From positions 51,641 to 115,640 of IMG/VR virus record IMGVR_UViG_3300046542_000291: DNA of 64,000 nt. One strand, written 5' to 3'. Position 1 is the first letter of the stretch. Every line of letters begins with the position of its first letter. The position numbers were made by a program, and so were the translations under genes. This stretch comes from a virus. Below the pieces are notes generated by a model, which did no database searches, had not been told where the DNA came from, and saw only the letters and a program-made list of their open reading frames with translations. Positions 29,555 through 57,952 of the stretch are shown piece after piece.

Positions 29555-30042
29555 GTATTGATGTCCTCCCACAGATTACTAATTATCCCCCAAACCGGAT
29601 TATGGTAATCATCGACCAAGTCAAGGTGACCCTGTAGGATTGTTACTGTGTCCGAGATAGATGTCTGAATACTTTCCTCGACCAGTGGCATAACCATGGC
29701 GTGGAGTTCTTTAGGCAACTGATCCTGGACAAATGTCGCTTGTGACTTGAAGAGGTCTTGTAACTCATCCCGTATAGGTCCTAAGACCGGTGACACACTT
29801 TCGTATGCATACCACGGGGCACTGCCGTCGGACGGGGGAGGTTCTACGCCTAGTTTTTCATAGGCCACCCGAATTGCCGGGTCAAGCCACTCATCTGGTT
29901 CGAGGTCCTCATCGGGCTCTACCATTACGTGCTCATCCCACGGCAAATCTTCATCACCAACGTCGTCTTCAAAGTCCCGACGAAAGTCCTCCTCGTCATC
30001 CATGGCATTGCCAAGCATGATCCCATCCAACGACATGTTCAT
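29551..30042 (-). CDS. acidic paralogue family member (163 aa), C-terminus ...IISNLWEDINT
   Basis: Asp/Glu-rich; ATGA overlap with both neighbours; divergent but recognisable tail. Confidence 0.55.
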   Translation of the reverse strand: MNMSLDGIMLGNAMDDEEDFRRDFEDDVGDEDLPWDEHVMVEPDEDLEPDEWLDPAIRVAYEKLGVEPPPSDGSAPWYAYESVSPVLGPIRDELQDLFKSQATFVQDQLPKELHAMVMPLVEESIQTSISDTVTILQGHLDLVDDYHNPVWGIISNLWEDINT

Positions 30043-30344
30043 GAATTAATCGCCTCTACAAACGCGTCTGCGATGTCTTCGAGGAATGGGAAGCAACCCA
30101 TATCCCCAGGCGATATAAACGCCAGCTGACAGCTGGCCTCTATCGTACTGCAGGTTCCGATTACAGCAGAGTGGATGGCGTCTTGTGCACACTCCTTCAC
30201 CCATTTGGTAGCATCATCGTTGATGTCCCAAAGAGCGCAGATGCGGTCATTGTTGATGAACTGTTCCACCGCAGCAGATGCTACGCCTTGCAGTTCACTA
30301 ACCAAGTCTTTCTTGCCTTGGGCGAGAATTTCATTTTCCATCAT
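30039..30344 (-). CDS. paralogue family member (101 aa), C-terminus ...IADAFVEAINS
   Basis: GAGGTG RBS; shares tail. Confidence 0.6.
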   Translation of the reverse strand: MMENEILAQGKKDLVSELQGVASAAVEQFINNDRICALWDINDDATKWVKECAQDAIHSAVIGTCSTIEASCQLAFISPGDMGCFPFLEDIADAFVEAINS

Positions 30345-30378
30345 TCACCTCTAGAGTATCACTCTGATAGGTATTTGT

Positions 30379-30651
30379 TTACAGGGTCAATAGTGGCCCC
30401 TTACCGTTGTGGATAGTAATCCCACCTTCACTGAGTTCTACCCGGTTACGTTCCAACCAATCCAGGGCATGTTGCACGCCCTGCTTGATCCCTTCGGCAA
30501 CATCACCATTGGGATCGGGTACTTTGGGCTGTGGTAAAGCCCGCAGTTCGTTTAGCAACGCTGAACGGCGATTAGATGTTGGTGTCTTTACAGTCACCAA
30601 TCCATGCGCTTCCAGCGTTGCCAGAAATGGATCATCTTCAACATCCTTCAC
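30379..30651 (-). CDS. hypothetical protein (90 aa)
   Basis: ORF-track ORF. Confidence 0.5.
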   Translation of the reverse strand: MKDVEDDPFLATLEAHGLVTVKTPTSNRRSALLNELRALPQPKVPDPNGDVAEGIKQGVQHALDWLERNRVELSEGGITIHNGKGPLLTL

Positions 30652-30985
30652 GGAGCGCTACTCCCGTCACGACTTGAATGAACATCTCCTTGCGTTCCCG
30701 TTCGTCCGTTAAAGGACCAACGTAAAACACCAAGTGAGGTTGTCCGGTAAAGTCAGGCTGCATGTATTCAGTGTACGCAATCCCTGCAGCCACTAAGTGA
30801 TGCCGACGACGATTGGCTGTGCGGTTAGGGCACATGTCTTCATCGGCCAGCATATAGAAGCTGTGCTCTCCATAAGAGAACTTCCCTTCCCCCTCACAGG
30901 GTTCGGTTGGAGGCAATCGCCACCAATCCTGTTTAACAGAGCCGTCGTTAACGACCCCCATGTATCCGACTGAGTTCAATGGCAT
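30638..30985 (-). CDS. hypothetical protein (115 aa)
   Basis: ORF-track ORF. Confidence 0.5.
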   Translation of the reverse strand: MPLNSVGYMGVVNDGSVKQDWWRLPPTEPCEGEGKFSYGEHSFYMLADEDMCPNRTANRRRHHLVAAGIAYTEYMQPDFTGQPHLVFYVGPLTDERERKEMFIQVVTGVALREGC

Positions 30986-31505
30986 TGGCCCGTGTTTCCT
31001 TTTTCAGCATGTGGTTACTTGAAACCCGCAGATGGTAATGCAACCCACCGTTAACCCAGGAAGAGATCTTGTCGTCAAACCCAAACGAGTTCAGGACTTG
31101 CTCCGCCAATTCGGCATCCACGTAGAACCACACCTGGGCTATCCCTTGTGGAGTCGACCAGATAATCGAGTTCTCACCGTCGATGACTGTATAACCCGCC
31201 ACGTGATTACCAGCTACGTAATCTTGACACCACTGGGCAATCAACATTGGTAACTTCGATGGTGGGTGGTTTGGATGACGGGGAATGTCACAGGCAGGAC
31301 CCATGTACGTGTAGTACGTACCATCCGTCAATTGACCATTGGCTTGGTCAAAAATACCACGACCTTTCAGTTCACGGATCTTACGGAGACCATCCTCTTT
31401 AGTTCGGTAGAGGTATACCGTTCCAGTCATCGGTGACGAGTCGGTAACAGTGACTTGGGTCAACTGCTCTACTTCGTTCCGAATAGCGATCGCCTGTAGG
31501 ATCAC
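30948..31505 (-). CDS. hypothetical protein (185 aa)
   Basis: ORF-track ORF. Confidence 0.55.
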   Translation of the reverse strand: MILQAIAIRNEVEQLTQVTVTDSSPMTGTVYLYRTKEDGLRKIRELKGRGIFDQANGQLTDGTYYTYMGPACDIPRHPNHPPSKLPMLIAQWCQDYVAGNHVAGYTVIDGENSIIWSTPQGIAQVWFYVDAELAEQVLNSFGFDDKISSWVNGGLHYHLRVSSNHMLKKETRANAIELSRIHGGR

Positions 31506-31536
31506 AGTAGCTTCCTTTTATAGTAGACGGCATAGA

Positions 31537-31556
31537 GCTACTCCCGAAGGAGCAGC
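31537..31556 (-). terminator. UUCG-loop hairpin (GCTACTCC-CGAA-GGAGCAGC, one mismatch)
   Basis: Hairpin family; directly after the SPFH gene. Confidence 0.45.
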
Positions 31557-31568
31557 ACTACACGTGGA

Positions 31569-32429
31569 TCAGTTGCCGCCGTTGAAGACTTTGTTGCTCA
31601 TGCCGGGGGTACCGAACGCTTGGTACGGTGCGAACACCACGTTCTTGTTCTCCGCCATCAGAGCTTGAACTTTCAGCGCTTCGTACGCCAGCAGATTCGG
31701 GCTGATACCCGCCGCCGTGATTTCGTTTTGATCGCGCAGAGTGCGAGCAACAGTCAGATCGATTTCACGTTGTGCTTGAGCCAGCTTCAGCGAGTTTTCA
31801 CGCTTGACCATTTCAATGGCCTGCTGGTTTTCTTCGGTCTTGATCGCCAGTTCACGTTCGGACTGTTTCTCGATCGCCTGCGTGATCACGTCCGGATACT
31901 TCAGATTGGCCAGGGTAACGTTGGAGACTTCCAGAGGAGAGTTCGCCATCGCTTCTTTCAGCTTGATCTGAAGATCTTTGTTGATCTGATCGAAGTTGGT
32001 ACCGACGTCTTCGGTGCGATATTTTCCAACGACAGAGCGAGCCACGGTTTGAACCATGTCACGGCCGTAGACACCGTACACCTGTTGCAGCGATACCAGG
32101 TTGTCTTGCACCTTGATGTCGTTGAACATGGAGTTGATGGTCTTGTCACCACCGCCGATACGAGTACGGAAACGGATCTCGAACTGGAGATCCATCCGAT
32201 CGAGCATCTTCACCCGCATCGTTTCCGAAACGGTTTGCGTCGACGTATCGAGCAGAACCAGTTCTTCACGCATGCCGATGGTGTACTTGCCGGTTTGCTT
32301 CACTTCGGTCGAGTAGCCATCAGGCGACAGGATTTTGCCGAGGTGTGCAGGGGGAACGGTCACGCGGTTGCAACCAGCGACTGCCAGCAGGCACAGCGAA
32401 ACGATCAGCGCTTTGATTCCGTACTTCAT
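31569..32429 (-). CDS. SPFH/band-7 (prohibitin/HflK-like) domain lipoprotein (286 aa)
   Basis: Signal peptide with lipobox LAVAG-C. Characteristic SPFH region (...VTLANLKYPDVITQAIEKQSERELAIKTEENQQAIEMVKRENSLKLAQAQ...) with coiled-coil tail. Confidence 0.75.
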   Translation of the reverse strand: MKYGIKALIVSLCLLAVAGCNRVTVPPAHLGKILSPDGYSTEVKQTGKYTIGMREELVLLDTSTQTVSETMRVKMLDRMDLQFEIRFRTRIGGGDKTINSMFNDIKVQDNLVSLQQVYGVYGRDMVQTVARSVVGKYRTEDVGTNFDQINKDLQIKLKEAMANSPLEVSNVTLANLKYPDVITQAIEKQSERELAIKTEENQQAIEMVKRENSLKLAQAQREIDLTVARTLRDQNEITAAGISPNLLAYEALKVQALMAENKNVVFAPYQAFGTPGMSNKVFNGGN

Positions 32430-32770
32430 TTAGCATTTTCCTTAACAGCGTTTTCGAGGGTTTTCTTGAAGCTTTCTTCCGCAGAAGCTTTGTTGGTACC
32501 GGTGGTAGCAGACGCCTTTGGTTCAGGCACTGTGTAATCCGGAGCATCAAAGCTTGCCCGAGGCAGAGAACTTTGCTTGTGACCGATGTTGACGTTCCAG
32601 GCAACCAGTACGGCCAGCGCAATCACCGAAATCCATACCCGCTGAGGCTTACCCAGCTGGACGATTTTGTTCTTGGTGAAGATGAGCCAACCACTGACCG
32701 CCAGGGTAAGTACCAGGTCAATAACGAACTTAACCGGGCTACCGGAGAAGTACATTGCGAAGAGATCCAT
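32426..32770 (-). CDS. small two-TM membrane protein (114 aa), possible NfeD-like partner of the SPFH protein
   Basis: Two hydrophobic helices then a soluble Lys/Ala-rich tail; 4-nt overlap with the SPFH gene start. The partner role is inferred from the usual SPFH-NfeD operon architecture. Confidence 0.5.
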   Translation of the reverse strand: MDLFAMYFSGSPVKFVIDLVLTLAVSGWLIFTKNKIVQLGKPQRVWISVIALAVLVAWNVNIGHKQSSLPRASFDAPDYTVPEPKASATTGTNKASAEESFKKTLENAVKENAK

Positions 32771-32833
32771 GGGATTCCTTAGAGTGTGATGTCAGAGGGC
32801 TAGTAACACAGTATGACTAAGCCCAGTATTTTG

Positions 32834-33055
32834 TTACCGTAAAGCTTTTGCCGTAATGAACCTTACATTTTTGGTCCTGGCCATGAAACCTTTTACCCGG
32901 TCAGCCATAGCCCGTATTTCTTCCTTGGAGGGCTCACATGCTCTCTTTGGCAGAAAGGCGCTGTCAGGGTAGTCCACAATCACAAAACCGTTCACAATGC
33001 TTACAGGGCAGTTACCGAGCAACATAGGCCACCTATGAGTTAATGGAAGCAGCAA
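32834..33055 (-). CDS. hypothetical protein (73 aa)
   Basis: ORF-track ORF. Confidence 0.4.
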   Translation of the reverse strand: MLLPLTHRWPMLLGNCPVSIVNGFVIVDYPDSAFLPKRACEPSKEEIRAMADRVKGFMARTKNVRFITAKALR

Positions 33056-33302
33056 ACGCTTCCGAGATCAGGCCGCCATCACGAATGATGCCTTCGTTAG
33101 CCAGGGTATCCACGGCAGTCCACATGGCCAGACCGATGACGTTGGTCACGATGTTCTCCACCCGCTTTTGTACTTCTGGATCATCGAAGCGGAAATGGCA
33201 CCGGCTGTCTGTGGCGTAGTTCTTAACCAGGTGATCTTTTGCCTTGGTCAATTGCTCAACCATTTTAGCACTGTCGTCAACTGGTTCATCGTTGTCGTGC
33301 AT
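33033..33302 (-). CDS. paralogue family member (89 aa), C-terminus ...ISEAFAASINS
   Basis: ORF-track 33033..33434 trimmed to ATG with AGGGGAA RBS located just after the stop of the upstream gene. Confidence 0.55.
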   Translation of the reverse strand: MHDNDEPVDDSAKMVEQLTKAKDHLVKNYATDSRCHFRFDDPEVQKRVENIVTNVIGLAMWTAVDTLANEGIIRDGGLISEAFAASINS

Positions 33303-33312
33303 GTCGTTCCCC

Positions 33313-33672
33313 TTAGGAATTAACCATTCGGAAGTGTTCGCACAGATTGCCCGCGATACTGGCGTTCTCTTCAACGAACGGGAGCCAGTTACCACCAGCT
33401 TCGATCGCTTCCTGTTTTTCAGTTTCGCCCACATCGGGCATCATGTTGAAGCCTGGGCAATTGGGATGATCGCCATCCAGGATCATGAAGATCCGGTCGC
33501 ACATGCCCGTAGCTACCGCCAGTGCCAGCTCCGCCGAATCATCGATGGCCTGAATGGCCGGAGAAGCCAACAGGTCGTCGCGTTCTGCTTTCACCGTATC
33601 AATGAACAGTTCGGTGACTTCACTGAAAGCAGCTTCACGGGATTGACCATTACCTTCGAAGTACACAGTCAT
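33313..33672 (-). CDS. hypothetical protein (119 aa); C-terminus ...CEHFRMVNS, possibly a distant family member
   Basis: Trimmed to the ATG that overlaps the upstream stop (ATGA). Confidence 0.5.
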   Translation of the reverse strand: MTVYFEGNGQSREAAFSEVTELFIDTVKAERDDLLASPAIQAIDDSAELALAVATGMCDRIFMILDGDHPNCPGFNMMPDVGETEKQEAIEAGGNWLPFVEENASIAGNLCEHFRMVNS

Positions 33673-34007
33673 GGTTTTGCTCCTTCGGTCCACTGTTTGA
33701 AGTAGTCCGAGTTATTGCCTTGGACATCCCGGAGTTTACCGAGAAGGCGTAAATCGCTAATGCCACCCAGCGAGTTACGGCAGGAAGCATGGTGCTGTTC
33801 TTGTAACACCGCTTTCCGCTCCAAGGTAACGTAGGTAATGGTTACCTTACCGTTGGTGCCAGTGCGGTTAAGCCCATAAGCCACGTAACCTTCTGCTTCA
33901 AGCGCTTTGTTAATAAGTGCATTGAACTCGGTGGTTGCATCGGACATGGTTACATGGTAGTAACCATCCTCCACCGGGAATTCTTTGTACGAGTCGATGT
34001 TAAGCAT
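33669..34007 (-). CDS. hypothetical protein (112 aa)
   Basis: ORF-track ORF. Confidence 0.5.
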   Translation of the reverse strand: MLNIDSYKEFPVEDGYYHVTMSDATTEFNALINKALEAEGYVAYGLNRTGTNGKVTITYVTLERKAVLQEQHHASCRNSLGGISDLRLLGKLRDVQGNNSDYFKQWTEGAKP

Positions 34008-34009
34008 CG

Positions 34010-34333
34010 TTATTGCCCCTGTTCTTCTTGCTCTTCCACAAAGCGCTGGTCATCCAGAGCAATAGTCAACGTGTGGCGGCCACTGTCTTCATCACGCGTC
34101 CAGACGTAGTTCCAACCGGCACTCTCCAACAGCAGATTAACCCGATCACGCAGTTTCTGACGCATTGGAAAGGTCAGATCGAAACGCCAGGTGGGTTCAA
34201 CGCGGGCATCGACCCTGTCGTCAGCTACCGTCTCTTTGCAGATACGTGCGATTAACGCTTGATACTTCAGTTCATCCACGTGTTTTTGGATGTACTCTTT
34301 GGTGGGAATCGGGAATGCTACAGCATCGGACAT
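34010..34333 (-). CDS. hypothetical protein (107 aa)
   Basis: ORF-track ORF. Confidence 0.5.
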   Translation of the reverse strand: MSDAVAFPIPTKEYIQKHVDELKYQALIARICKETVADDRVDARVEPTWRFDLTFPMRQKLRDRVNLLLESAGWNYVWTRDEDSGRHTLTIALDDQRFVEEQEEQGQ

Positions 34334-34345
34334 TACATACTCCTG

Positions 34346-34864
34346 TTATGACTGTTGAGGGCCAGGTTTAATAGTTTTGAGTTTCTTGATGAGGTCCTGT
34401 TCAATGCCTTCTTCGGCATCGTCCATTAACTCGTCAAGCGTATAAGCGAACATTGACTTGTCGTAGGTGCCTTCCGGCACACGGACGGTATTGGGTACGA
34501 ACAACATCACATCAAACAAATCGTGCTCATCTCGGAACTCGCCTAGATTATGAGCGGTCAGAGTAGAAGAGTGCATCTCACCGTATTTCAGTTCAAAGGT
34601 CGGGCCATCCTTATTGAAGTCTAAGCTCCAATCCTGAAAGGCGAAACCGTAACGATCTGGATCAGCGCGTGCTGTCGTAACGTCAGCATCAGATACGTTC
34701 TTGTAGCTGGCGTATCGATCGAAGAATTCTTTACTGAATGCTGAGACGTAGGCTAATTTTCCATCACCTCCGAAAACATACATCTCTGGGTACACACGTA
34801 ACTCAAGCGGACCGTCGTTGGTTGCCCATACTCCTTTTATGACGACAAGCTTTTGGTAGCTCAT
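34346..34864 (-). CDS. hypothetical protein (172 aa), first gene after a promoter motif
   Basis: ORF-track ORF; AGGAAG RBS; 28 nt downstream of CTATATTAC. Confidence 0.55.
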   Translation of the reverse strand: MSYQKLVVIKGVWATNDGPLELRVYPEMYVFGGDGKLAYVSAFSKEFFDRYASYKNVSDADVTTARADPDRYGFAFQDWSLDFNKDGPTFELKYGEMHSSTLTAHNLGEFRDEHDLFDVMLFVPNTVRVPEGTYDKSMFAYTLDELMDDAEEGIEQDLIKKLKTIKPGPQQS

Positions 34865-34891
34865 AGGAAGTTCCTTTTTGGTTGCCTGGTA

Positions 34892-34900
34892 GTAATATAG
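34892..34900 (-). promoter_or_regulatory. conserved promoter-like motif CTATATTAC
   Basis: Flank CATTTTATTTCAGATCTATATTACTAC is shared with the copy at 52949. Confidence 0.5.
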
Positions 34901-34935
34901 ATCTGAAATAAAATGGAGTAAAAAAGAAAAAAGTA

Positions 34936-34957
34936 AAGGCCTCCCCGAAGGGAGGCT
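34936..34957 (-). terminator. UUCG-loop hairpin GGCCTCCC-CGAA-GGGAGGC(TTTATG)
   Basis: Hairpin family; directly after the stop of 34966..35418. Confidence 0.55.
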
Positions 34958-34965
34958 TTATGTGG

Positions 34966-35418
34966 TTATGGGGCTTTAGCAAAGTTACGTTTCATTGCCT
35001 TAGCGGGTTTACCCACCATACCGGCACAGCCAATCTTAGTTGCCCTGTTAACAGCATCGGGGTAAGACACGCCAGCCTGAACTTGTTTAGCGATGACTGG
35101 GTTACCGAGCATGGAAACAATGTTGGCATCAAAACGCATTGCCATGTTAGTAGCTGCCCATCGGTCATCGTTGGCCGCTTCCGCCGCGGTGAGGTCAACC
35201 AACGCGGTAGTTCTTTCGTCAGCGTTTTTACCGTCCATGTACCATCGAGTGATTAATGTAGTCAACTCGGTGTAACGCTTGCAGGTTAGTGGGGTGATAG
35301 TGAGGTCGACGTCAACTTCAGTATCGAGACTTTGTACGACCCGTGGAGTGTCGTTAGCCGAAGCCAGACCCGTGAGGAACAACAGTCCTACGATCATGAG
35401 TGTAATTACGTTTTTCAT
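34966..35418 (-). CDS. secreted/periplasmic protein (150 aa)
   Basis: N-terminal signal peptide (MKNVITLMIVGLLFLTGLASA); paralogous to 35456..35890. Confidence 0.55.
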   Translation of the reverse strand: MKNVITLMIVGLLFLTGLASANDTPRVVQSLDTEVDVDLTITPLTCKRYTELTTLITRWYMDGKNADERTTALVDLTAAEAANDDRWAATNMAMRFDANIVSMLGNPVIAKQVQAGVSYPDAVNRATKIGCAGMVGKPAKAMKRNFAKAP

Positions 35419-44600: not shown

Positions 44601-46001
44601 TTATTCTTCGTCGTCTTTCTTCTTTTCCAAATACTGAGTACTTACAGCTTTAAAGCTGAACACTCGGTCGGTGCACTTGAACACCAGTCCTTCGCGGTAA
44701 GTTTTCTTCGGTTGTTTCGGATCGACATTGAACGCACGCGGACCTTCAGCCATCAGGAGAATATCCTGAATAGTAGTGCCCACCGGAATAACAAACTTCT
44801 CATGCATGACCGGGACGTAAGGAAGGCCGATGGCAGCACATACACCACGAGCTTCTTCCGGCAACAACTCCTGGCTACCATTGCGGTATACGCTGTAGAC
44901 ATGGTATTCAACATCTTCCACGCCTTCGAAGCCAGACTGGATATCTGGACCGATCAGCTCGCCTTGAACAGTGATGTATTCACCTGTCTCTTCCTGGTAC
45001 GCCTTCAGCTTCTCAACCACCTTGTTCTTGGTGACGTAGCGGGTGAAGTTCCGGGAGGTGCTGTCGCCAATACCGGTGTTGGCTTTCCATTCAGGGACGT
45101 GAAGGTTGTTCATACGGAACGCCCATTTGCCATCTTCGTCCTTGAAGAACCACGACTTCGGTTTTAGGAAGTTGCGGTTGCGCGCCAGGAGGGTACCGAT
45201 CCAGTAACGGATCTGATCTGGTTTGGACCATTCCTCGTCACCGATAACCAACTCGTAGTTACGCGAGCAAACGCCAGTACGAACACCACCATCATCCAGG
45301 CAGAATACCGTCATGGAGCTACCGTCGAGTTTCCAGGTAACTTCGAATTCAGTGCCTTCCGCCTTTGCCGCTTCGAACGCGACTGTCTTGTTCTGGATAC
45401 GATCCTGATCAGACTTGAGCAGTTGCTTCGGCCATGGCAGGAGAGCATTACCCACGTTACCGAGGATCTTACGTACCAGACGCATGTACCAGCCAGAACC
45501 AGCTGCAGCCTGTTGCGCCGGCGACATGAGTGGCTTGGCTGCAAACTTCAGGATGCCCAGCTCCAACGTCATGTTGGTTTCAGCTGGAAGGTCTTTGTAT
45601 TTCTCTGGGAGTGGTACAACCAACCCCTGGGCCAGCTCCTTACGAAGACGGAGCGTGCGCAAACGGTGATAAGCCTTACCGTTGATCAGGCGGTTATCGG
45701 AACGGCGTGCCTCGAGGAACCCGAACAGTGGGTTATCGATTGGCAACAGCGAGTCGATCTCGCAGTACACCACACGGTCACCCTTCTTGTATTCGTCCAG
45801 CTTGACCACGCACTGCCAGCCGCCGATGATTGCCAGAGACAAGGCATCAGCATTTGGATGTTTGATCACGTCGTCAAGTACGACGATACGCGCCAGTTTG
45901 CGGTCGGTTTCAACCACCCCGTTCCCCTCACGGATTGGTTTGAGTTCAGCAGCTACATCGGGGGTAGCGGTTGCGACTTCGATCTTTTCTACGACAGACA
46001 T
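44601..46001 (-). CDS. ATP-dependent polynucleotide (RNA/DNA) ligase with an N-terminal OB domain resembling tRNA-binding (Myf/EMAP-like) domains, 466 aa
   Basis: Nucleotidyltransferase motif I WKLDGSS (KxDG) and motif IV EGLVFK. N-terminus (ARIVVLDDVIKHPNADALSLAIIGGWQCVV...KKGDRVVY) follows the HP.AD.L pattern of tRNA-binding OB domains. Confidence 0.75.
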   Translation of the reverse strand: MSVVEKIEVATATPDVAAELKPIREGNGVVETDRKLARIVVLDDVIKHPNADALSLAIIGGWQCVVKLDEYKKGDRVVYCEIDSLLPIDNPLFGFLEARRSDNRLINGKAYHRLRTLRLRKELAQGLVVPLPEKYKDLPAETNMTLELGILKFAAKPLMSPAQQAAAGSGWYMRLVRKILGNVGNALLPWPKQLLKSDQDRIQNKTVAFEAAKAEGTEFEVTWKLDGSSMTVFCLDDGGVRTGVCSRNYELVIGDEEWSKPDQIRYWIGTLLARNRNFLKPKSWFFKDEDGKWAFRMNNLHVPEWKANTGIGDSTSRNFTRYVTKNKVVEKLKAYQEETGEYITVQGELIGPDIQSGFEGVEDVEYHVYSVYRNGSQELLPEEARGVCAAIGLPYVPVMHEKFVIPVGTTIQDILLMAEGPRAFNVDPKQPKKTYREGLVFKCTDRVFSFKAVSTQYLEKKKDDEE

Positions 46002-46017: not shown

Positions 46018-46266
46018 TTATTGCAAAGGTTTGCAGGTTACAGTGATTTTTGCCATACGGCTCGACAGTGCGCCACCATCGACTCTCGATTCAACGTAGT
46101 CTTTGGTTTCTTTGACGAGGTAAGGCTTCATGCCGTATGTCTCTACGACTTGTTCAATTGCGGCTGGACACGTGTTGGCATCTGACAGTTCTGTGACTGT
46201 TGGTGCACCACCAGGTCCTGCGCCTGTATTGAACGCAAATGCGATAACAAGTAACGCTTTCATCAT
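46018..46266 (-). CDS. small secreted protein (82 aa)
   Basis: Signal peptide MMKALLVIAFAFNTGAG; two Cys. Confidence 0.5.
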   Translation of the reverse strand: MMKALLVIAFAFNTGAGPGGAPTVTELSDANTCPAAIEQVVETYGMKPYLVKETKDYVESRVDGGALSSRMAKITVTCKPLQ

Positions 46267-47546
46267 TACCCCTTAACGCAGAGAACCTGCTTCAGCGTGT
46301 GGACGATCTCGACGAGTTCAGCCTGAGCTGCCATCACGTCTTCGATGTTCTTGTACGCCTTCGGGGTCTCATCGAGCACACCTTCATCTTTACGGCATTC
46401 AACACCAGCCGTATCGCGGATGTGATCTTCGATGGTGAAGTTACGGTTAGCCGCTTTACGCGACATCACACGACCAGCACCATGCGAACAGGAGCAGAAC
46501 GACTCACGGTTGCCCTTACCACGAACGATGAACGACTTCGCACCCATCGACCCTGGGATAATACCCAGAGTACCTTCCTCGGCGTTTACGGCACCTTTAC
46601 GGGTAACCAGAACGTTCTCACCGAAGTGACGTTCCTGGGACACGTAGTTGTGGTGGCAATTGATTGCCGCCATGTCGGTGTCGATTGGCAGGTTCAGGGT
46701 TTTGTGGATCGCCCCCAGAACAGCCTTCATCATGAGCGTACGATTCAGTGCTGCGAAACGCTGTGCCCACGATACCGCCTGCAGGTAGTCGTCGTAGTAC
46801 TTGGTACCGTGTGGCAGGTAAGCCAGATCTTGGTCTGGTAGATGGATAAAGAAACGACCCATCTCTTCCTTTGCCTTGTTGATGAAGTACTGACCGATCG
46901 CATTCCCGATACCACGGGAACCAGAGTGCAGCATTACCCACACACGCTGTTCCTCGTCCAAGCACAGCTCAACGAAGTGGTTACCGGTACCGAGAGTACC
47001 CACATGGTTCCACGCCCGTTGTGCAGCCTTGGTGAGCTTCGGGTGTTTCTCAACGATTTGGTTCAGTTGCGTTCGCAACTTCTCCGCTTCAGCAGCGATC
47101 ATGATGTCCTTGTTATCGAACACAGTCACCTTACCGAAAGCACCACGGTCGTTTGGACCACCGTTGTCAGTACGGCCATGTGGTACTACCGCTTCGATAG
47201 CTGCCCGCAGATGGCCGAGGCTATCTGGCAGTTGGTCTGCACCGAACGTCAAGCGACGAGCGGCCATTCCGCACCCGATATCGACCCCCACCGCAGCGGG
47301 AATGATTGCACCTTTAGTAGCAATGACGCTACCGACAGTGGCACCCAACCCGAAGTGTACGTCCGGCATTACTGCAACGTGCGAATGGATGAACGGCAAC
47401 GACGCCAGGTTCTTCAACTGCTTGACTGCGGTCTCTTCGACTGGAACCCCCACGGTCCAGCCTTTAATCGGCTTCGAACCCGGTTCAGGTTCGCCACCAA
47501 TGATTTCGAAAGACTTATCTTGCTGCTGGGATTTCTTTTGTTTCAT
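46266..47546 (-). CDS. rtcB: RtcB-family RNA ligase (3'-phosphate/5'-OH ligase), 426 aa
   Basis: Blocks HFGLGATVGSVIA, DIGCGMAA, GTLGTGNHFVEL and HSGSRGIGN match conserved RtcB metal/GTP-binding motifs. Confidence 0.9.
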   Translation of the reverse strand: MKQKKSQQQDKSFEIIGGEPEPGSKPIKGWTVGVPVEETAVKQLKNLASLPFIHSHVAVMPDVHFGLGATVGSVIATKGAIIPAAVGVDIGCGMAARRLTFGADQLPDSLGHLRAAIEAVVPHGRTDNGGPNDRGAFGKVTVFDNKDIMIAAEAEKLRTQLNQIVEKHPKLTKAAQRAWNHVGTLGTGNHFVELCLDEEQRVWVMLHSGSRGIGNAIGQYFINKAKEEMGRFFIHLPDQDLAYLPHGTKYYDDYLQAVSWAQRFAALNRTLMMKAVLGAIHKTLNLPIDTDMAAINCHHNYVSQERHFGENVLVTRKGAVNAEEGTLGIIPGSMGAKSFIVRGKGNRESFCSCSHGAGRVMSRKAANRNFTIEDHIRDTAGVECRKDEGVLDETPKAYKNIEDVMAAQAELVEIVHTLKQVLCVKG

Positions 47547-49610: not shown

Positions 49611-51392
49611 TTATGCAGCTTCGCGCAGGGTTGCACGAACTTCTTCGAAGGTCACTTCGTTCGGGAACGTGCCGTCTTTGTAGATCGGACGCAGTTCACC
49701 CGAGTGAGTGTCGAGGTCAGCGATTTCGAACTTCTGCTCTTGGAGCAGCTCAAAGTCACCGGCTTCGTTCTTCACAACCTTCAGGAAGCCCTTGGCCGAC
49801 TTCTTGTTGGTTTCGCCTTCGGTCTTCGGCGCCTTGAACAGCTCAACGAACACGTCGTCCACTTGAACGGCGGTAGCCTTGATGGCGTAGCCGAAGGTGT
49901 CACGAGTGTTGTGCTGATAGGTGTACGAACCGATACCCAGAACCCAGTTGCACGAAGCGAAGCCTTTCTTCATCAGGCGACGCATGATTTCCTGGGTACG
50001 TTCCACAGTGATCGAATCACCGTAGATCAGGCCAACACGTTCGTGCAGCACTTTGAAGCCCTTGTCGGTCATGGTGCCACCGAAAGTGTTCCACAGGCAT
50101 TCCACCGCACCGATCTGTTCGGCGTTCAGTTCTACCGGAGCCCACAGGTAGCCCAGAGCCGTGTAGTACTTCTCGGCGTCTTCAGCACTGATCGGATTTT
50201 CGTAGCGGGTTGCTTTGTACGTCATGCCGTTCAACAGAACGTACTCGACGTCTTTCGCTTTGCCGTTGTTGACCAGTTCGCTGAATTCCAGCGAGTTGTG
50301 AACTTCCACACCGCAGATGACTTCAACAGGATCACCGGAATCCGGACGGAACACCACTTTGGCCAGGCCGTTGGCGTCTGGTTGACGAGCCAGGATTTCT
50401 TCCTTCAGGGAAGGGGCAACAATGGTCAGGACACCCCAGAAGTCGAAGCTGTCGCAGACCAGGCTGATGATGCCAGTAGGACACTTGACGGTAATGGCAT
50501 CCAGGATGAACTGACGCTCGGCCAGCAGTTGCGCTTTGCCGTATGCATCGGGATCGAGGTCACCACCAGTCAGGCCTTTTTCCAGCAGCCACTTGGTCAT
50601 GTTGTACAGGATGTTCGAAGTAGCAACGGCGTGTTCGGTAGCACGCACCGATACAGCCAGGAACTCGACGTCGCTGTTGGCGAAGTACATGTCTTCGGCG
50701 TAGTCGATGGCCGGCAGGGTATCGGTACCCACGAAGCTGGTCAGGTGACCGGCGCCAGTACGAGCAGCATCTTCAGGACCGGACAGGCCACGGAAGGCGA
50801 AGTCATGCCCTTGCAACGCAACGAAGTCACGAGGCGAACCAGTCAGGTCAGCGAAGTGTTCCAGGATGCGACGGTATTCGTAAGCGATGGTGGCGTTGCA
50901 GACCATTTTCCAGATCAGCGACGACATCAGGGTTTCCAGGTAGTTCACTACCCAGAAGAATTCCGGTACGGTGTTGTAGATCACGTAGCCCGGAACGTTC
51001 ATGTTCAGGCGAGAGCCTTCCGGTACCGACAGGATGGTAACCGGTAAGTAACCCAGGTCATGCAGTGCTGCCATGGCTTCGATGTCAACCATACCTTCAC
51101 CGAGGTAGTTCTTCATGCGGCGAGCGTAGCGACGGATCACTTGCTCTTTCGGCTTGCTGAAGAACGAATCGTGCCACAGGCCGTGAACTTCACGCATCAC
51201 GCCTTGGATACCGAACCAGACGACTTTGCTATCCCAGAGGTAGGACTGGGACTTGCTGCCCTTGAACAGACGGTCTGCACGTGGAGTGCCGTTACCGTAG
51301 GCGAAGTTGGTGCCGTTCGGGTACAGAGGGCCGTGACCCATTTTGTAACCGTCTGCTGCAGTCGGGCCAAACAGTTTGAAAGAAGTGCTCAT
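49611..51392 (-). CDS. nadV: nicotinamide phosphoribosyltransferase-family enzyme (NadV/Nampt-like; could be a Namat-type variant), 593 aa
   Basis: Conserved Nampt blocks including VFRPDSGDP and the GS...DSFD region. ORF-track 49611..51443 trimmed to ATG with AAGGAAA RBS. Confidence 0.85.
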   Translation of the reverse strand: MSTSFKLFGPTAADGYKMGHGPLYPNGTNFAYGNGTPRADRLFKGSKSQSYLWDSKVVWFGIQGVMREVHGLWHDSFFSKPKEQVIRRYARRMKNYLGEGMVDIEAMAALHDLGYLPVTILSVPEGSRLNMNVPGYVIYNTVPEFFWVVNYLETLMSSLIWKMVCNATIAYEYRRILEHFADLTGSPRDFVALQGHDFAFRGLSGPEDAARTGAGHLTSFVGTDTLPAIDYAEDMYFANSDVEFLAVSVRATEHAVATSNILYNMTKWLLEKGLTGGDLDPDAYGKAQLLAERQFILDAITVKCPTGIISLVCDSFDFWGVLTIVAPSLKEEILARQPDANGLAKVVFRPDSGDPVEVICGVEVHNSLEFSELVNNGKAKDVEYVLLNGMTYKATRYENPISAEDAEKYYTALGYLWAPVELNAEQIGAVECLWNTFGGTMTDKGFKVLHERVGLIYGDSITVERTQEIMRRLMKKGFASCNWVLGIGSYTYQHNTRDTFGYAIKATAVQVDDVFVELFKAPKTEGETNKKSAKGFLKVVKNEAGDFELLQEQKFEIADLDTHSGELRPIYKDGTFPNEVTFEEVRATLREAA

Positions 51393-51405
51393 TACTTTGT
51401 TTTCC

Positions 51406-52281
51406 TTACGCATTGATCCAGGTGAGTTTGTTATCGACAACACCGTCTGGGCGAGTACTGCCCTGTGCTGTCGGATGGAACGAGTTGGTGGTGTAGACGT
51501 GGTCGTACTTTTCAGTAACCAGGTCGAAACCGTACGAGAAGATCCCGTGCGTTACCAACAGTTCCAATCGTGCTGGATTATGCTTGCGGATTTCTTCAGC
51601 CAGTTGGATGAAGGTCCGTCCACCATCACAGATGTCGTCACAGACCAGCAGTCGTTTGCCAGTTACATCGGCATCGAACTTGGTCTTGGTGATTTCCATC
51701 GTTTCCAGGTCACGCTCTTTAGTAGCCGTGATGTAACCAGCGCAGCCCAGGTGAGCAGCCAACGCTTTCACTTTCTTGACAGCCCCTGCATCAGGAGCCA
51801 CCAGCCAGGTATCGTGCAGTTCGTTTGCCGTAGCATCCAACATGTGCACGATGTCAGCCTGGGTCTTGACGATCACGCGGTTGATCAACGCCGGCGTAGT
51901 GTCGCTGTGCGGGTCCAAAATGGTCACACTGACGAACTCACAGAGGTTGATCAACTTCGCTGCTACCGCAATACCCAACGACTCCCCGGGGTTACACACG
52001 CGGTCCTGCCGGGCGTAAGGGACATAAGGGATATATGCGCTTACCGGTACGTCGGGACGAATGCGACGGATCGCATCGGTAACGTGCAGTAAAGCGAGGA
52101 AGTCAGTTGGGGTACGGAGGTTGGCCATGACTTGAATGTCCATGCAACCGCGGATTTTGTTGTGGAACTCTTTCGGAATAAGTGGGTTAACTTCCCCACC
52201 TTTGAACGTGCTCACGTCAACGATAGTCTGCGCCACTCCCCAGTGGTCGCCATTGCCGCGTCGGATACTTAAACGAATCAT
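51406..52281 (-). CDS. prs: ribose-phosphate pyrophosphokinase-family enzyme (PRPP synthetase, or ADPR-pyrophosphokinase-type homologue), 291 aa
   Basis: YARQDR motif and PRPP-binding loop LLVCDDICDGGRTF; immediately upstream of the nadV-like gene. Confidence 0.85.
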   Translation of the reverse strand: MIRLSIRRGNGDHWGVAQTIVDVSTFKGGEVNPLIPKEFHNKIRGCMDIQVMANLRTPTDFLALLHVTDAIRRIRPDVPVSAYIPYVPYARQDRVCNPGESLGIAVAAKLINLCEFVSVTILDPHSDTTPALINRVIVKTQADIVHMLDATANELHDTWLVAPDAGAVKKVKALAAHLGCAGYITATKERDLETMEITKTKFDADVTGKRLLVCDDICDGGRTFIQLAEEIRKHNPARLELLVTHGIFSYGFDLVTEKYDHVYTTNSFHPTAQGSTRPDGVVDNKLTWINA

Positions 52282-56578: not shown

Positions 56579-57952
56579 TTAAACTGCCACTGGAGCAGGG
56601 ATATGGGGATGGCTATCGTAACCGACCAATTTAAAGTCGTTGATATCCATGTCCAGAACATCACGCTTATTCGGATTTATCCAAATAGTGCACGGCTGTT
56701 TTGGTGTACGGGTTTGTTGCAGAGCCACCTGGTCCATGTGGTCCAGATAGATGTGGGCATCACCAACTTGATGAATCAGTTCTTCAGCCCAGTAGTTGCA
56801 CTCATGAGCCAACAGGTGAGTGAGAATCGAGTACTGGGTGAGATTGAAGGGCGCGCCCAAAAAGATGTCATTGGAACGCATCCAGAACAAACACTTCAAT
56901 GCACGACGTGGAACCTTCATGCTGTCGAGGTCGAGGTGTTGTTCCTCTTCGGTGCGGTCAGGAAAGCGGAGCATCTTGCTGAGGTTCATGTACATACCGT
57001 ACAGAGGCTCCTCAGGATGGTCTGCTGCCTGTTTGTAGATCTCGGCCTGGTGACGATCATGGATCTTGTCGTAGATCGCCCAGCGCTCTTCCAGGGACAG
57101 CACACGGGTCCAGAACTGAACCATGGCATGGCATGGCGGCAGGGCTTGTTGATCCACGTAAGCCGGATTCCAGAAACACAGAATGTGACGTCGGGAGTCA
57201 GGGCTGTTCTTCAGCGAGTGCTGCAGATCTTTAAACTGGTCGATGGTTCGGGTAATGATGAACTTACCCTTGTTCCGGCAAAGCTTCTTGTAACCCAGCT
57301 TCTGCATCTCCGGCCATTCTTTTGGCGAGATAACGCGGGTGTCTTCCAGGTTACGGATCATCTTGCCGTAAACGTGACCCAGAGGACCTTCAGTCACTTC
57401 CTGGTCGGAAATACCAATGTGGCGGAAGAAGTCCTTCCACAACGGATGTTCCTTGTCATCGTGCATTGCCTGGGCATTGTCCGTCGACGTCTCGATCAAA
57501 TAGTTCGGGATCATCTTGTCGCTACCAGGCACTTCAGTGTAGTTGACGTAAGAATGAAACTTCTCGCCAACATTACCAAAGTGAATACCCGCAGGATAAC
57601 CCTTCAGTTCGATCTCACCCCAACCGAAGTGCTTGCGCTTGTATTGCTTGCGCATTTCAGCCGCAGTACGAGGACGGTACTTGGCCCCTTCTGGCTTGAC
57701 CCAGTCATCCCAGATGCCACAGTTGTTGTCTTTCAGGTACTTGACGTTGGTGTCGCCGGAGAGCACCCACTTGAGTTCGACCTTGTTGTCGTTCTCAGGT
57801 ACGAACTTTGTCGTTGGTCTGGCTACGGTCCAGTCGGAGATGTCGTAGCGATGCATGGCGCCGAAGCTGGAGATCGTTCCTGTATTGGTCCGGTCCCCCT
57901 TGGCCACGCCGTGCTTCAAAGTGTTTTCCTGGTACTGAAGGTATTGATGCAT
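56579..57952 (-). CDS. thyA: thymidylate synthase-family enzyme with two large insertions (ThyA or dUMP/dCMP hydroxymethylase-type), 457 aa
   Basis: GDRTNTGT N-terminal motif, catalytic LPPCH, DIFLGAPFN...YSILTHLLAHEC block, and C-terminal HPHIPAPVAV. About 90-aa and 85-aa insertions relative to 264-aa E. coli ThyA. Confidence 0.85.
   Translation of the reverse strand: MHQYLQYQENTLKHGVAKGDRTNTGTISSFGAMHRYDISDWTVARPTTKFVPENDNKVELKWVLSGDTNVKYLKDNNCGIWDDWVKPEGAKYRPRTAAEMRKQYKRKHFGWGEIELKGYPAGIHFGNVGEKFHSYVNYTEVPGSDKMIPNYLIETSTDNAQAMHDDKEHPLWKDFFRHIGISDQEVTEGPLGHVYGKMIRNLEDTRVISPKEWPEMQKLGYKKLCRNKGKFIITRTIDQFKDLQHSLKNSPDSRRHILCFWNPAYVDQQALPPCHAMVQFWTRVLSLEERWAIYDKIHDRHQAEIYKQAADHPEEPLYGMYMNLSKMLRFPDRTEEEQHLDLDSMKVPRRALKCLFWMRSNDIFLGAPFNLTQYSILTHLLAHECNYWAEELIHQVGDAHIYLDHMDQVALQQTRTPKQPCTIWINPNKRDVLDMDINDFKLVGYDSHPHIPAPVAV

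Follow-up and report, generated by a model that had tools for sequence, protein, structure and literature searches.

SPFH proteins such as prohibitin, stomatin, flotillin and HflK/C are universal membrane scaffolds, although the physiology of most bacterial members is unclear. Human prohibitin, E. coli HflK/C, stomatin, erlin, flotillin and QmcA all assemble into membrane-bound rings or cages, and prohibitin, which lies on the non-cytoplasmic side of its membrane, cages an AAA protease. HflK/C is likewise described as non-cytoplasmic and as caging an AAA protease (PMC12048511). Genes for NfeD and SPFH proteins often share operons, and the QmcA-YbbJ cage protrudes into the cytoplasm (PMC13086221). 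In B. subtilis, the SPFH protein SamI (YdjI) needs small non-NfeD membrane proteins, SamG/SamH (YdjG/YdjH), that are encoded beside it, and it is linked to protection from membrane stress (bioRxiv 10.64898/2026.02.06.704340, PMC8581546). Here we compare these systems with a gene pair at positions 31569-32770 of a 64,000-nucleotide stretch of viral DNA (IMG/VR record IMGVR_UViG_3300046542_000291, positions 51,641 to 115,640), referred to below as the window.

The pair comprises a gene for an SPFH/Band_7 lipoprotein and, directly upstream, a gene for a small membrane protein with two transmembrane (TM) helices. We read it as a two-gene phage envelope module in which a periplasmic SPFH scaffold would work with a dedicated membrane partner other than NfeD, a reading whose chances we put at about even. 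The features of the locus are as follows (aa, amino acids; pLDDT, predicted local distance difference test).

32426 to 32770, minus strand: partner gene, 114 aa, predicted two-helix inner-membrane protein, PHROG 32239 of unknown function
31569 to 32429, minus strand: SPFH/Band_7 lipoprotein gene, 286 aa, matching Pfam Band_7 and PHROG 200
32426 to 32429, minus strand: ATGA overlap of partner stop and SPFH start, 4 shared bases, tcat on the plus strand
32370 to 32429, minus strand: lipoprotein signal peptide, lipobox V-A-G-C at aa 17-20, predicted lipidated Cys20, followed by N-R-V
31899 to 32369, minus strand: SPFH alpha/beta domain, aa 21-177, AlphaFold block-mean pLDDT 87-94, with Foldseek matches
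31650 to 31892, minus strand: long helices, aa 180-239 and 244-260 (DSSP on the AlphaFold model), followed by a low-confidence C-terminal tail
32678 to 32737, minus strand: partner TM helix 1, aa 12-31, AlphaFold helix and hydropathy peak
32594 to 32650, minus strand: partner TM helix 2, aa 41-59, from AlphaFold, after a K/R-rich loop (aa 32-40) with a predicted cytoplasmic location
32432 to 32593, minus strand: predicted periplasmic tail of the partner, aa 60-113, with juxtamembrane motif N-[VI]-G-H-[KR]-Q..L.R..FD, disordered linker and C-terminal amphipathic helix (aa 94-113)
31537 to 31556, minus strand: 8-bp hairpin with a UUCG loop, 12 nucleotides past the SPFH stop codon, GCUGCUCC-UUCG-GGAGUAGC

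Homologues of each open reading frame (ORF) are present in many phages, so both are evidently real genes and not chance ORFs. A Shine-Dalgarno sequence, AAGGA(A), read directly from the DNA, precedes each of them (32439-32443 and 32775-32780).

The 286-aa product matches Band_7 (PF01145) over residues 24-203 with E = 4.5e-15 and 56.6 bits against a Pfam cutoff of 23.6 bits, and the PHROG 200 'lipoprotein' family with E = 5e-50. It is 52-65% identical to proteins of phages Psa21, RisingSun, PAK_P3, pf16 and Miami. The N-terminus, MKYGIKALIVSLCLLAVAGC, is a lipoprotein signal peptide with a lipobox, whose G19 and C20 never vary across 20 aligned sequences; a lipobox is found in 118 of 120 SPFH homologues. 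The preliminary description, made from the sequence alone, was thus right to call this an SPFH lipoprotein. Because of the signal peptide and the invariant lipobox, the protein is directly predicted to be exported and lipid-anchored via Cys20, with its SPFH domain exposed in the periplasm; the predicted lipid would serve as the N-terminal membrane anchor expected of members of the SPFH superfamily, a place held in HflK/C and prohibitin by a TM helix. The phage SPFH gene as such is already known and annotated, as PHROG 200 and in GenBank as 'SPFH domain/band 7', 'prohibitin' or 'lipoprotein', and the window gene is a member of that family, no different in kind from the annotated PAK_P3 gp041, RisingSun gp131 and pf16 gp165.

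The AlphaFold model of the lipoprotein (mean pLDDT 80) has strands within residues 21-91, helices within 95-160, a strand at 166-177, a 60-residue helix at 180-239 and a further helix at 244-260. Foldseek placed it closest to prohibitin PHB1/2, HflK/C and stomatin, with erlin, flotillin and QmcA also matched, at probability 1.00 and E = 1e-13 to 1e-8; the alignments span 254-302 columns of full-length protomers. According to the model, then, the protein has the full protomer plan of the cage-forming SPFH proteins, and we read its two long helices, from our comparison of the structures, as corresponding to the coiled-coil helices that form the walls of SPFH cages. The best matches are PHB1/PHB2 (9o9z and 8rrh, E = 2e-13), which also have an N-terminal anchor and hold the SPFH domain on the non-matrix side; unlike the phage protein, prohibitin is eukaryotic, mitochondrial and heteromeric, and identity is 16-18%. 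At the level of sequence, the only PDB match was the core of an archaeal stomatin (E = 6e-5). Among the PADLOC defence models, the SPFH protein gave only a 13.8-bit match to PDC-S02 (E = 0.016), and the partner gave none.

HflK/HflC is also among the top structural matches (9cz2, 7vhq and 7wi3, within the same E range) and resembles the window protein in lying on the periplasmic side and in its order of anchor, SPFH domain, long helices and C-terminal tail. The phage protein could on this ground be an HflK/C mimic that alters the turnover of membrane proteins, host or phage, by capturing or shielding FtsH of the host or some other protease or channel of the inner membrane. HflK/C and prohibitin rank among the best matches and the topology fits the non-cytoplasmic caging described above, so that capture of FtsH in the manner of HflK/C is topologically possible. 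Several differences make such mimicry unlikely in our estimation. No HflK or HflC equivalog model was found among the NCBIfam hits of the protein at E <= 0.1, which argues that it is not an HflK/HflC orthologue, and the single PDB sequence match leads to stomatin. The predicted anchor is a lipid where HflK/C has a TM helix, a single SPFH gene takes the place of a K/C heteropair, and a small membrane partner comes with the module, which may therefore do without a host client.

The partner matches PHROG 32239 (E = 1.3e-15). Its AlphaFold model, built from a 20-sequence alignment (pLDDT 74), contains helices at residues 12-31, 41-59 and 94-113, separates the last two by an unstructured, low-pLDDT stretch (residues 64-93), and pairs residues 5-8 with residues 60-63 in a small beta element that places both on the same side of the membrane. 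This two-TM architecture and the 4-nucleotide ATGA overlap with the lipoprotein gene agree with what had initially been noticed. Among 31 partners, the loop between the helices carries 134 Lys and Arg residues in total and the N-terminal tail 5. By the positive-inside rule, the K/R-rich loop is predicted to be cytoplasmic, and the N-terminus and the tail of ~55 residues to be periplasmic (N-out/C-out); the tail would therefore share a compartment, the periplasm, with the SPFH domain. Alignments show a juxtamembrane motif in the tail, roughly F-[DN]-V-G-x-R-Q-x-x-L-x-R-x-x-F-[DN], followed by a short E-K-V-x-V element and then the amphipathic C-terminal helix.

The pair had been proposed to mirror the bacterial NfeD-SPFH operon. 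As an analogy of architecture, a TM partner adjoining an SPFH gene, the proposal stands; as a claim of NfeD homology it was borne out neither by Pfam and PDB searches nor by AlphaFold and Foldseek. The partner does show NfeD-like traits, namely N-terminal TM helices, a gene that adjoins the SPFH gene with an ATGA overlap, and conserved adjacency, and like QmcA-YbbJ and FloA-NfeD the window has an SPFH gene beside the gene for a small TM protein whose soluble C-terminal part lies in the SPFH compartment. QmcA itself is a structural match of the lipoprotein (8z5g, E = 2e-9). If the pair were a phage copy of the bacterial operon, the 114-aa protein would be a diverged, short NfeD, and the shared gene order and plan, together with the frequency of NfeD-SPFH operons, would be accounted for. 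The window partner, however, matched 0 Pfam families at E <= 10; the 25 of 64 families listed when 24 partner homologues were scanned do not include NfeD (PF01957); and no NfeD chain was present among the PDB matches of a partner-family profile at E <= 10. What the Pfam and PDB comparisons returned was transmembrane noise only (DUF4131, Wzy_C and TolQ, E ~0.005 to 1). The AlphaFold model has no OB-fold beta-barrel, and a Foldseek search of it against the PDB gave no match at E <= 0.001. Furthermore, the SPFH domain here is predicted to be periplasmic and lipid-anchored through a lipobox, whereas the QmcA-YbbJ cage projects into the cytoplasm. By sequence and model, the 114-aa partner is not NfeD, and descent from the NfeD operon seems highly improbable. 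A precedent for an SPFH protein paired with small non-NfeD membrane proteins is offered instead by SamI; it is cytosolic and works with PspA, unlike the window protein, and no homology between the two was seen.

The pairing is strongly conserved. A partner-like gene of 97-125 aa lies directly upstream, on the same strand, at ~35 of the examined loci with an SPFH homologue of 38-65% identity; these include phages of the Psa21, RisingSun, PAK_P3/KPP10 and pf16 types, around thirty IMG/VR contigs (14 to 317 kb), and two contigs of bacterial size. The order is inverted in seven distant lineages (loci L010, L044, L045, L046, L047, L048 and L050), where an SPFH lipoprotein (23-32% identity) comes first and a charged-tailed, two-helix protein of 105-139 aa directly after it: T4-like Vibrio phages, the T5-like Vibrio phage PG07, Alteromonas phage PT11-V22, Aeromonas phage 4L372XY, Acidovorax phage ACP17, Xanthomonas phage XacN1 and one IMG/VR contig. 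The expectation that the pair would be found together in related phages was thereby confirmed. Aligning the upstream and downstream types of partner with hhalign gave 62% probability and E = 7e-5 from the second helix to the C-terminus, which suggests, without proving it, that they share a common origin. The tails of the inverted-order partners often terminate in a motif like F-D-E-M-V-[KR]-Y-K.

Searches with the partner sequence recover a small part of this distribution. Its homologues in jumbo phages are 27-38% identical; tblastn yielded 17 phage records, exhaustive phmmer 9 proteins at E <= 0.001 (the query included), and a word-indexed search the query itself only, or 14 proteins when used with a profile. 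The partner relatives are split over PHROGs 32239, 13586, 15523 and 36640, or fall in none, and these PHROGs carry no link to PHROG 200. The partner evidently evolves too fast for sequence searches, and synteny reveals far more. Distance matrices of the SPFH proteins and the partners are correlated (Mantel r = 0.785, a value reached in 0 of 2000 permutations); the SPFH proteins average 52% identity and the partners 20%. Given this correlation and these identities, the two genes evidently move as a cassette across unrelated phage lineages, the partner evolving much faster. The conserved pairing strongly supports the view that they form a functional pair.

Some loci depart from the common arrangement. 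In one IMG/VR contig (L027, 2611-2962), the partner is truncated and has no first helix, and a 65-aa ORF with no TM helix stands between it and the SPFH gene; this partner could be a decaying copy or the product of a frameshift. In Fusobacterium phage Fnu1 (L049), a prohibitin with a TM anchor precedes a two-TM protein of 52 aa that lacks a tail. The two bacterial-size contigs, of 514 kb and 810 kb, carry the pair at L004 7699-8897 (Pseudomonas luteola JBJDQB010000003.1) and L006 7700-8888. The neighbours of the P. luteola pair are a RecD2-like helicase, a Macro-domain protein and umuDC-like genes, and this copy may lie in a mobile island or prophage remnant. Scans of 185,579 bacterial species genomes with back-translated motifs, a pattern-dependent method, found no relative, which suggests, though weakly, that bacteria seldom carry the family.

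At position +2 of the lipoprotein, 111 of 118 homologues have Gly or Ser and the window protein has Asn (Asn-Arg), so that Gly, Ser or Asn is found in 112 of 118; Asp occurs in only 5 of 118. Since Asp is rare at this position, the E. coli rule predicts sorting to the outer membrane by default; taken together, lipoprotein sorting rules gave no decision between the inner and the outer membrane. If the lipoprotein were sorted there, the two proteins would together bridge the inner and outer membranes, and an SPFH assembly would stand where, to our knowledge, none has been described; we know of no SPFH protein on the outer membrane, and this counts against such a location. An outer-membrane lipoprotein could serve superinfection exclusion or a trans-envelope link, either by acting on a receptor or channel, like T5 Llp or Cor, or by meeting the partner tail across the periplasm in a spanin-like geometry. 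An inner-membrane protein with a periplasmic tail, encoded by a gene that overlaps a lipoprotein gene, is a layout that resembles spanins, and in RisingSun the gene annotated as Cor superinfection exclusion (gp123; L001 1-359) lies eight genes upstream of the pair. The early expression described below also recalls that reported for T5 Llp (bioRxiv 10.64898/2026.03.26.714494). Opposing a receptor-specific blocker, the SPFH proteins are 52-65% identical across phages of hosts with different receptors. A spanin is not indicated either: the match to PHROG 456 covers only the signal peptide (E = 0.23), and PAK_P3 has spanins of its own. Taken as a whole, we consider an outer-membrane role of this kind doubtful.

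A two-component spanin was considered in its own right, that is, a small proline-rich outer-membrane lipoprotein with a type II inner-membrane protein and a long periplasmic coiled coil, encoded in a lysis cassette. It was rejected: the lipoprotein belongs to the SPFH proteins and is 266 residues long, the partner has two TM helices, the annotated PAK_P3 spanins are separate, and expression in PAK_P3 is early.

Timing of expression can be read from published transcriptomes of PAK_P3, whose pair lies at L002 3611-4837. In the S5 Table of PMC4933390, gp041, which is the SPFH gene, drew 65,120 reads in replicate 1 at 3.5 min, the highest value among gp001-gp051. By 13 min there is no significant change in its share of the reads from the phage; upstream of it, lysis and structural genes increase by log2 3-13. 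Mass spectrometry of a crude lysate detected RisingSun gp131 (PMC6034870), so the protein is made; membership of the virion is not implied.

Class II holins are typically small two-TM proteins, as is the partner, and the PAK_P3 pair lies ~3 kb downstream of endolysin and spanin genes, which might suggest a lysis-timing device made of a holin or antiholin and a periplasmic regulator. We give this very little chance. PAK_P3 transcripts are already abundant at 3.5 min, unlike those of its late lysis genes, which change by log2 3.3-5.8 (PMC4933390); the genes around the window pair are ORFans, not lysis genes, and the partner matches no PHROG lysis family. A holin proper was rejected on these same observations, early PAK_P3 transcripts, no lysis neighbours and no match to a PHROG lysis family. 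Because the annotated endolysin and spanin genes upstream of the PAK_P3 pair are separate from it, with an annotated terminator and promoter in between, we read the pair as having no lysis function, and no virion function either.

The hairpin reported downstream of the SPFH gene is indeed present at 31537-31556, 12 nucleotides past the stop codon. The 63-nucleotide fold around it has -21.5 kcal/mol, with z = -2.8 relative to shuffled controls. It has no U-tract, and a scan for the terminator consensus did not call it; it is probably a transcript-end or stability element. A promoter scan found no sigma-70-type promoter. Strong hairpins occur 3' of the SPFH gene in seven of eight loci that were folded, followed in four by a U-rich stretch (RisingSun, PAK_P3 and pf16 included). 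In pf16, an annotated rho-independent terminator directly follows the SPFH gene, and an annotated phage promoter lies within the partner gene (L009 2430-2457). These hairpins, the pf16 promoter and terminator, and the PAK_P3 reads indicate that the SPFH gene usually ends a transcription unit and that its product may be made in excess over the partner.

How might a periplasmic SPFH scaffold and a membrane partner work together? In the module as we picture it, the 286-aa product would be exported, lipidated at Cys20 and displayed in the periplasm as a complete SPFH protomer, and the 114-aa product would enter the inner membrane as a hairpin of two helices, with a cytoplasmic loop and with its short N-terminus and its tail in the periplasm. 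By analogy with structurally characterised SPFH proteins, the lipoprotein would oligomerise into a ring or dome on the membrane surface. The partner would be its dedicated membrane-embedded subunit, docking through the juxtamembrane motif and the C-terminal helix, and might nucleate the SPFH assembly or be enclosed by it. It would thus play the part that NfeD plays for QmcA/FloA and SamG/SamH for SamI, without homology to either. Most speculatively, the assembly, made as soon as infection begins, would fence off or stabilise part of the host envelope, most likely either to preserve an intact, energised inner membrane while a long infection runs its course or to block entry of the DNA of superinfecting phages. 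The preliminary description had suggested modulation of FtsH, protection against abortive infection or superinfection exclusion, all of them speculative. Of possible roles we favour, by inference only, stabilisation or protection of the envelope or superinfection exclusion, because expression is early, the pair is portable across receptors and hosts, and it lies outside lysis cassettes.

Some observations weigh against this module. Outer-membrane sorting, which the +2 residues predict, would put the SPFH protein and its partner in different membranes. The Mantel correlation can be explained by co-inheritance alone. A literature search returned no functional study of a phage SPFH protein and no experiment on a member of this family. 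The PAK_P3 partner gene, gp040, has 1,701 reads at 3.5 min, ~38-fold fewer than gp041 (S5 Table of PMC4933390). This gap and the promoter inside the pf16 partner gene suggest that the SPFH gene has a separate transcript, and for the same reasons a strict 1:1 complex is doubtful.

A broader proposal is more tentative: that the pairs represent a widespread and unrecognised class of phage device, in which virulent phages of Gram-negative bacteria build a periplasmic SPFH cage with a private non-NfeD subunit within minutes and so seize a patch of envelope. It is a possibility to which we attach a good deal less than even confidence. If true, the outcome could be superinfection exclusion, neutralisation of membrane-attacking defence effectors, or maintenance of the proton-motive force until lysis. 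Anchoring in the outer membrane would also be possible, and would lack precedent for an SPFH protein.

The surroundings of the pair are mostly unfamiliar. Of ten genes around it, nine are ORFans and one belongs to a PHROG of unknown function, so gene context yields no functional clue. Both proteins of the pair are encoded, at 100% identity, on a single metagenome contig of 310,396 bp. The window also codes for an RNA ligase, RtcB, nicotinamide phosphoribosyltransferase, phosphoribosyl pyrophosphate (PRPP) synthetase and thymidylate synthase, and the nearest SPFH relatives belong to jumbo phages (e.g., Psa21, RisingSun, Miami and PA1C). From these encoded genes and SPFH relatives, the window is evidently a piece of a jumbo phage genome. 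Megablast of positions 30000-35000 against phage records gave no match, indicating that it is only distantly related to sequenced phages.

Elsewhere in the window, all on the minus strand, a nicotinamide phosphoribosyltransferase gene (49611-51443; PHROG 448, E = 1e-176) overlaps the next gene, for a ribose-phosphate pyrophosphokinase (51406-52281; PHROG 619, E = 1e-81). Together they form an NAD+ salvage pair, and phages are thought to deploy such pairs against NAD-depleting defence systems. An RNA ligase gene (44601-46001; PHROG 968) adjoins one for an RtcB-type tRNA-splicing ligase (46266-47546; PHROG 1075), and the two look like an RNA/tRNA repair set; in PAK_P3, an RNA ligase gene lies three genes downstream of the SPFH gene. 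The thymidylate synthase-like ORF at 56579-57952 (457 aa) covers, over its full length, only positions 33-308 of a 335-position profile, and it matched a second profile in two stretches; the gene may contain a large insertion or a fused segment. About 2.2 kb upstream of the SPFH pair and on the same strand, a 150-aa ORF (34966-35418) begins with a signal-peptide-like N-terminus, MKNVITLMIVGLLFLTGLASA, and may encode another exported phage protein of the same gene block.

What is new here is the anchor and the partner of an SPFH scaffold, and its setting in a virus. In the searchable literature we did not find described the obligate pairing with a fast-evolving two-helix partner, the non-NfeD nature of that partner, or the breadth of the family with both gene orders. 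For annotation, PHROGs 32239, 13586, 15523 and 36640 can now be attached to PHROG 200 as its partner. A compact, two-gene version of the SPFH system appears to have been captured and kept by many unrelated virulent phages, whose SPFH proteins are 52-65% identical while the rest of their genomes share nothing, which argues for a strong and portable selective benefit during infection. PAK_P3 and RisingSun can be cultivated, and so would offer a tractable system for a minimal periplasmic SPFH assembly and its non-NfeD partner. The presence of the pair in cultivable phages thus lets one ask whether membrane scaffolds may serve exclusion, anti-defence or protection of the envelope.

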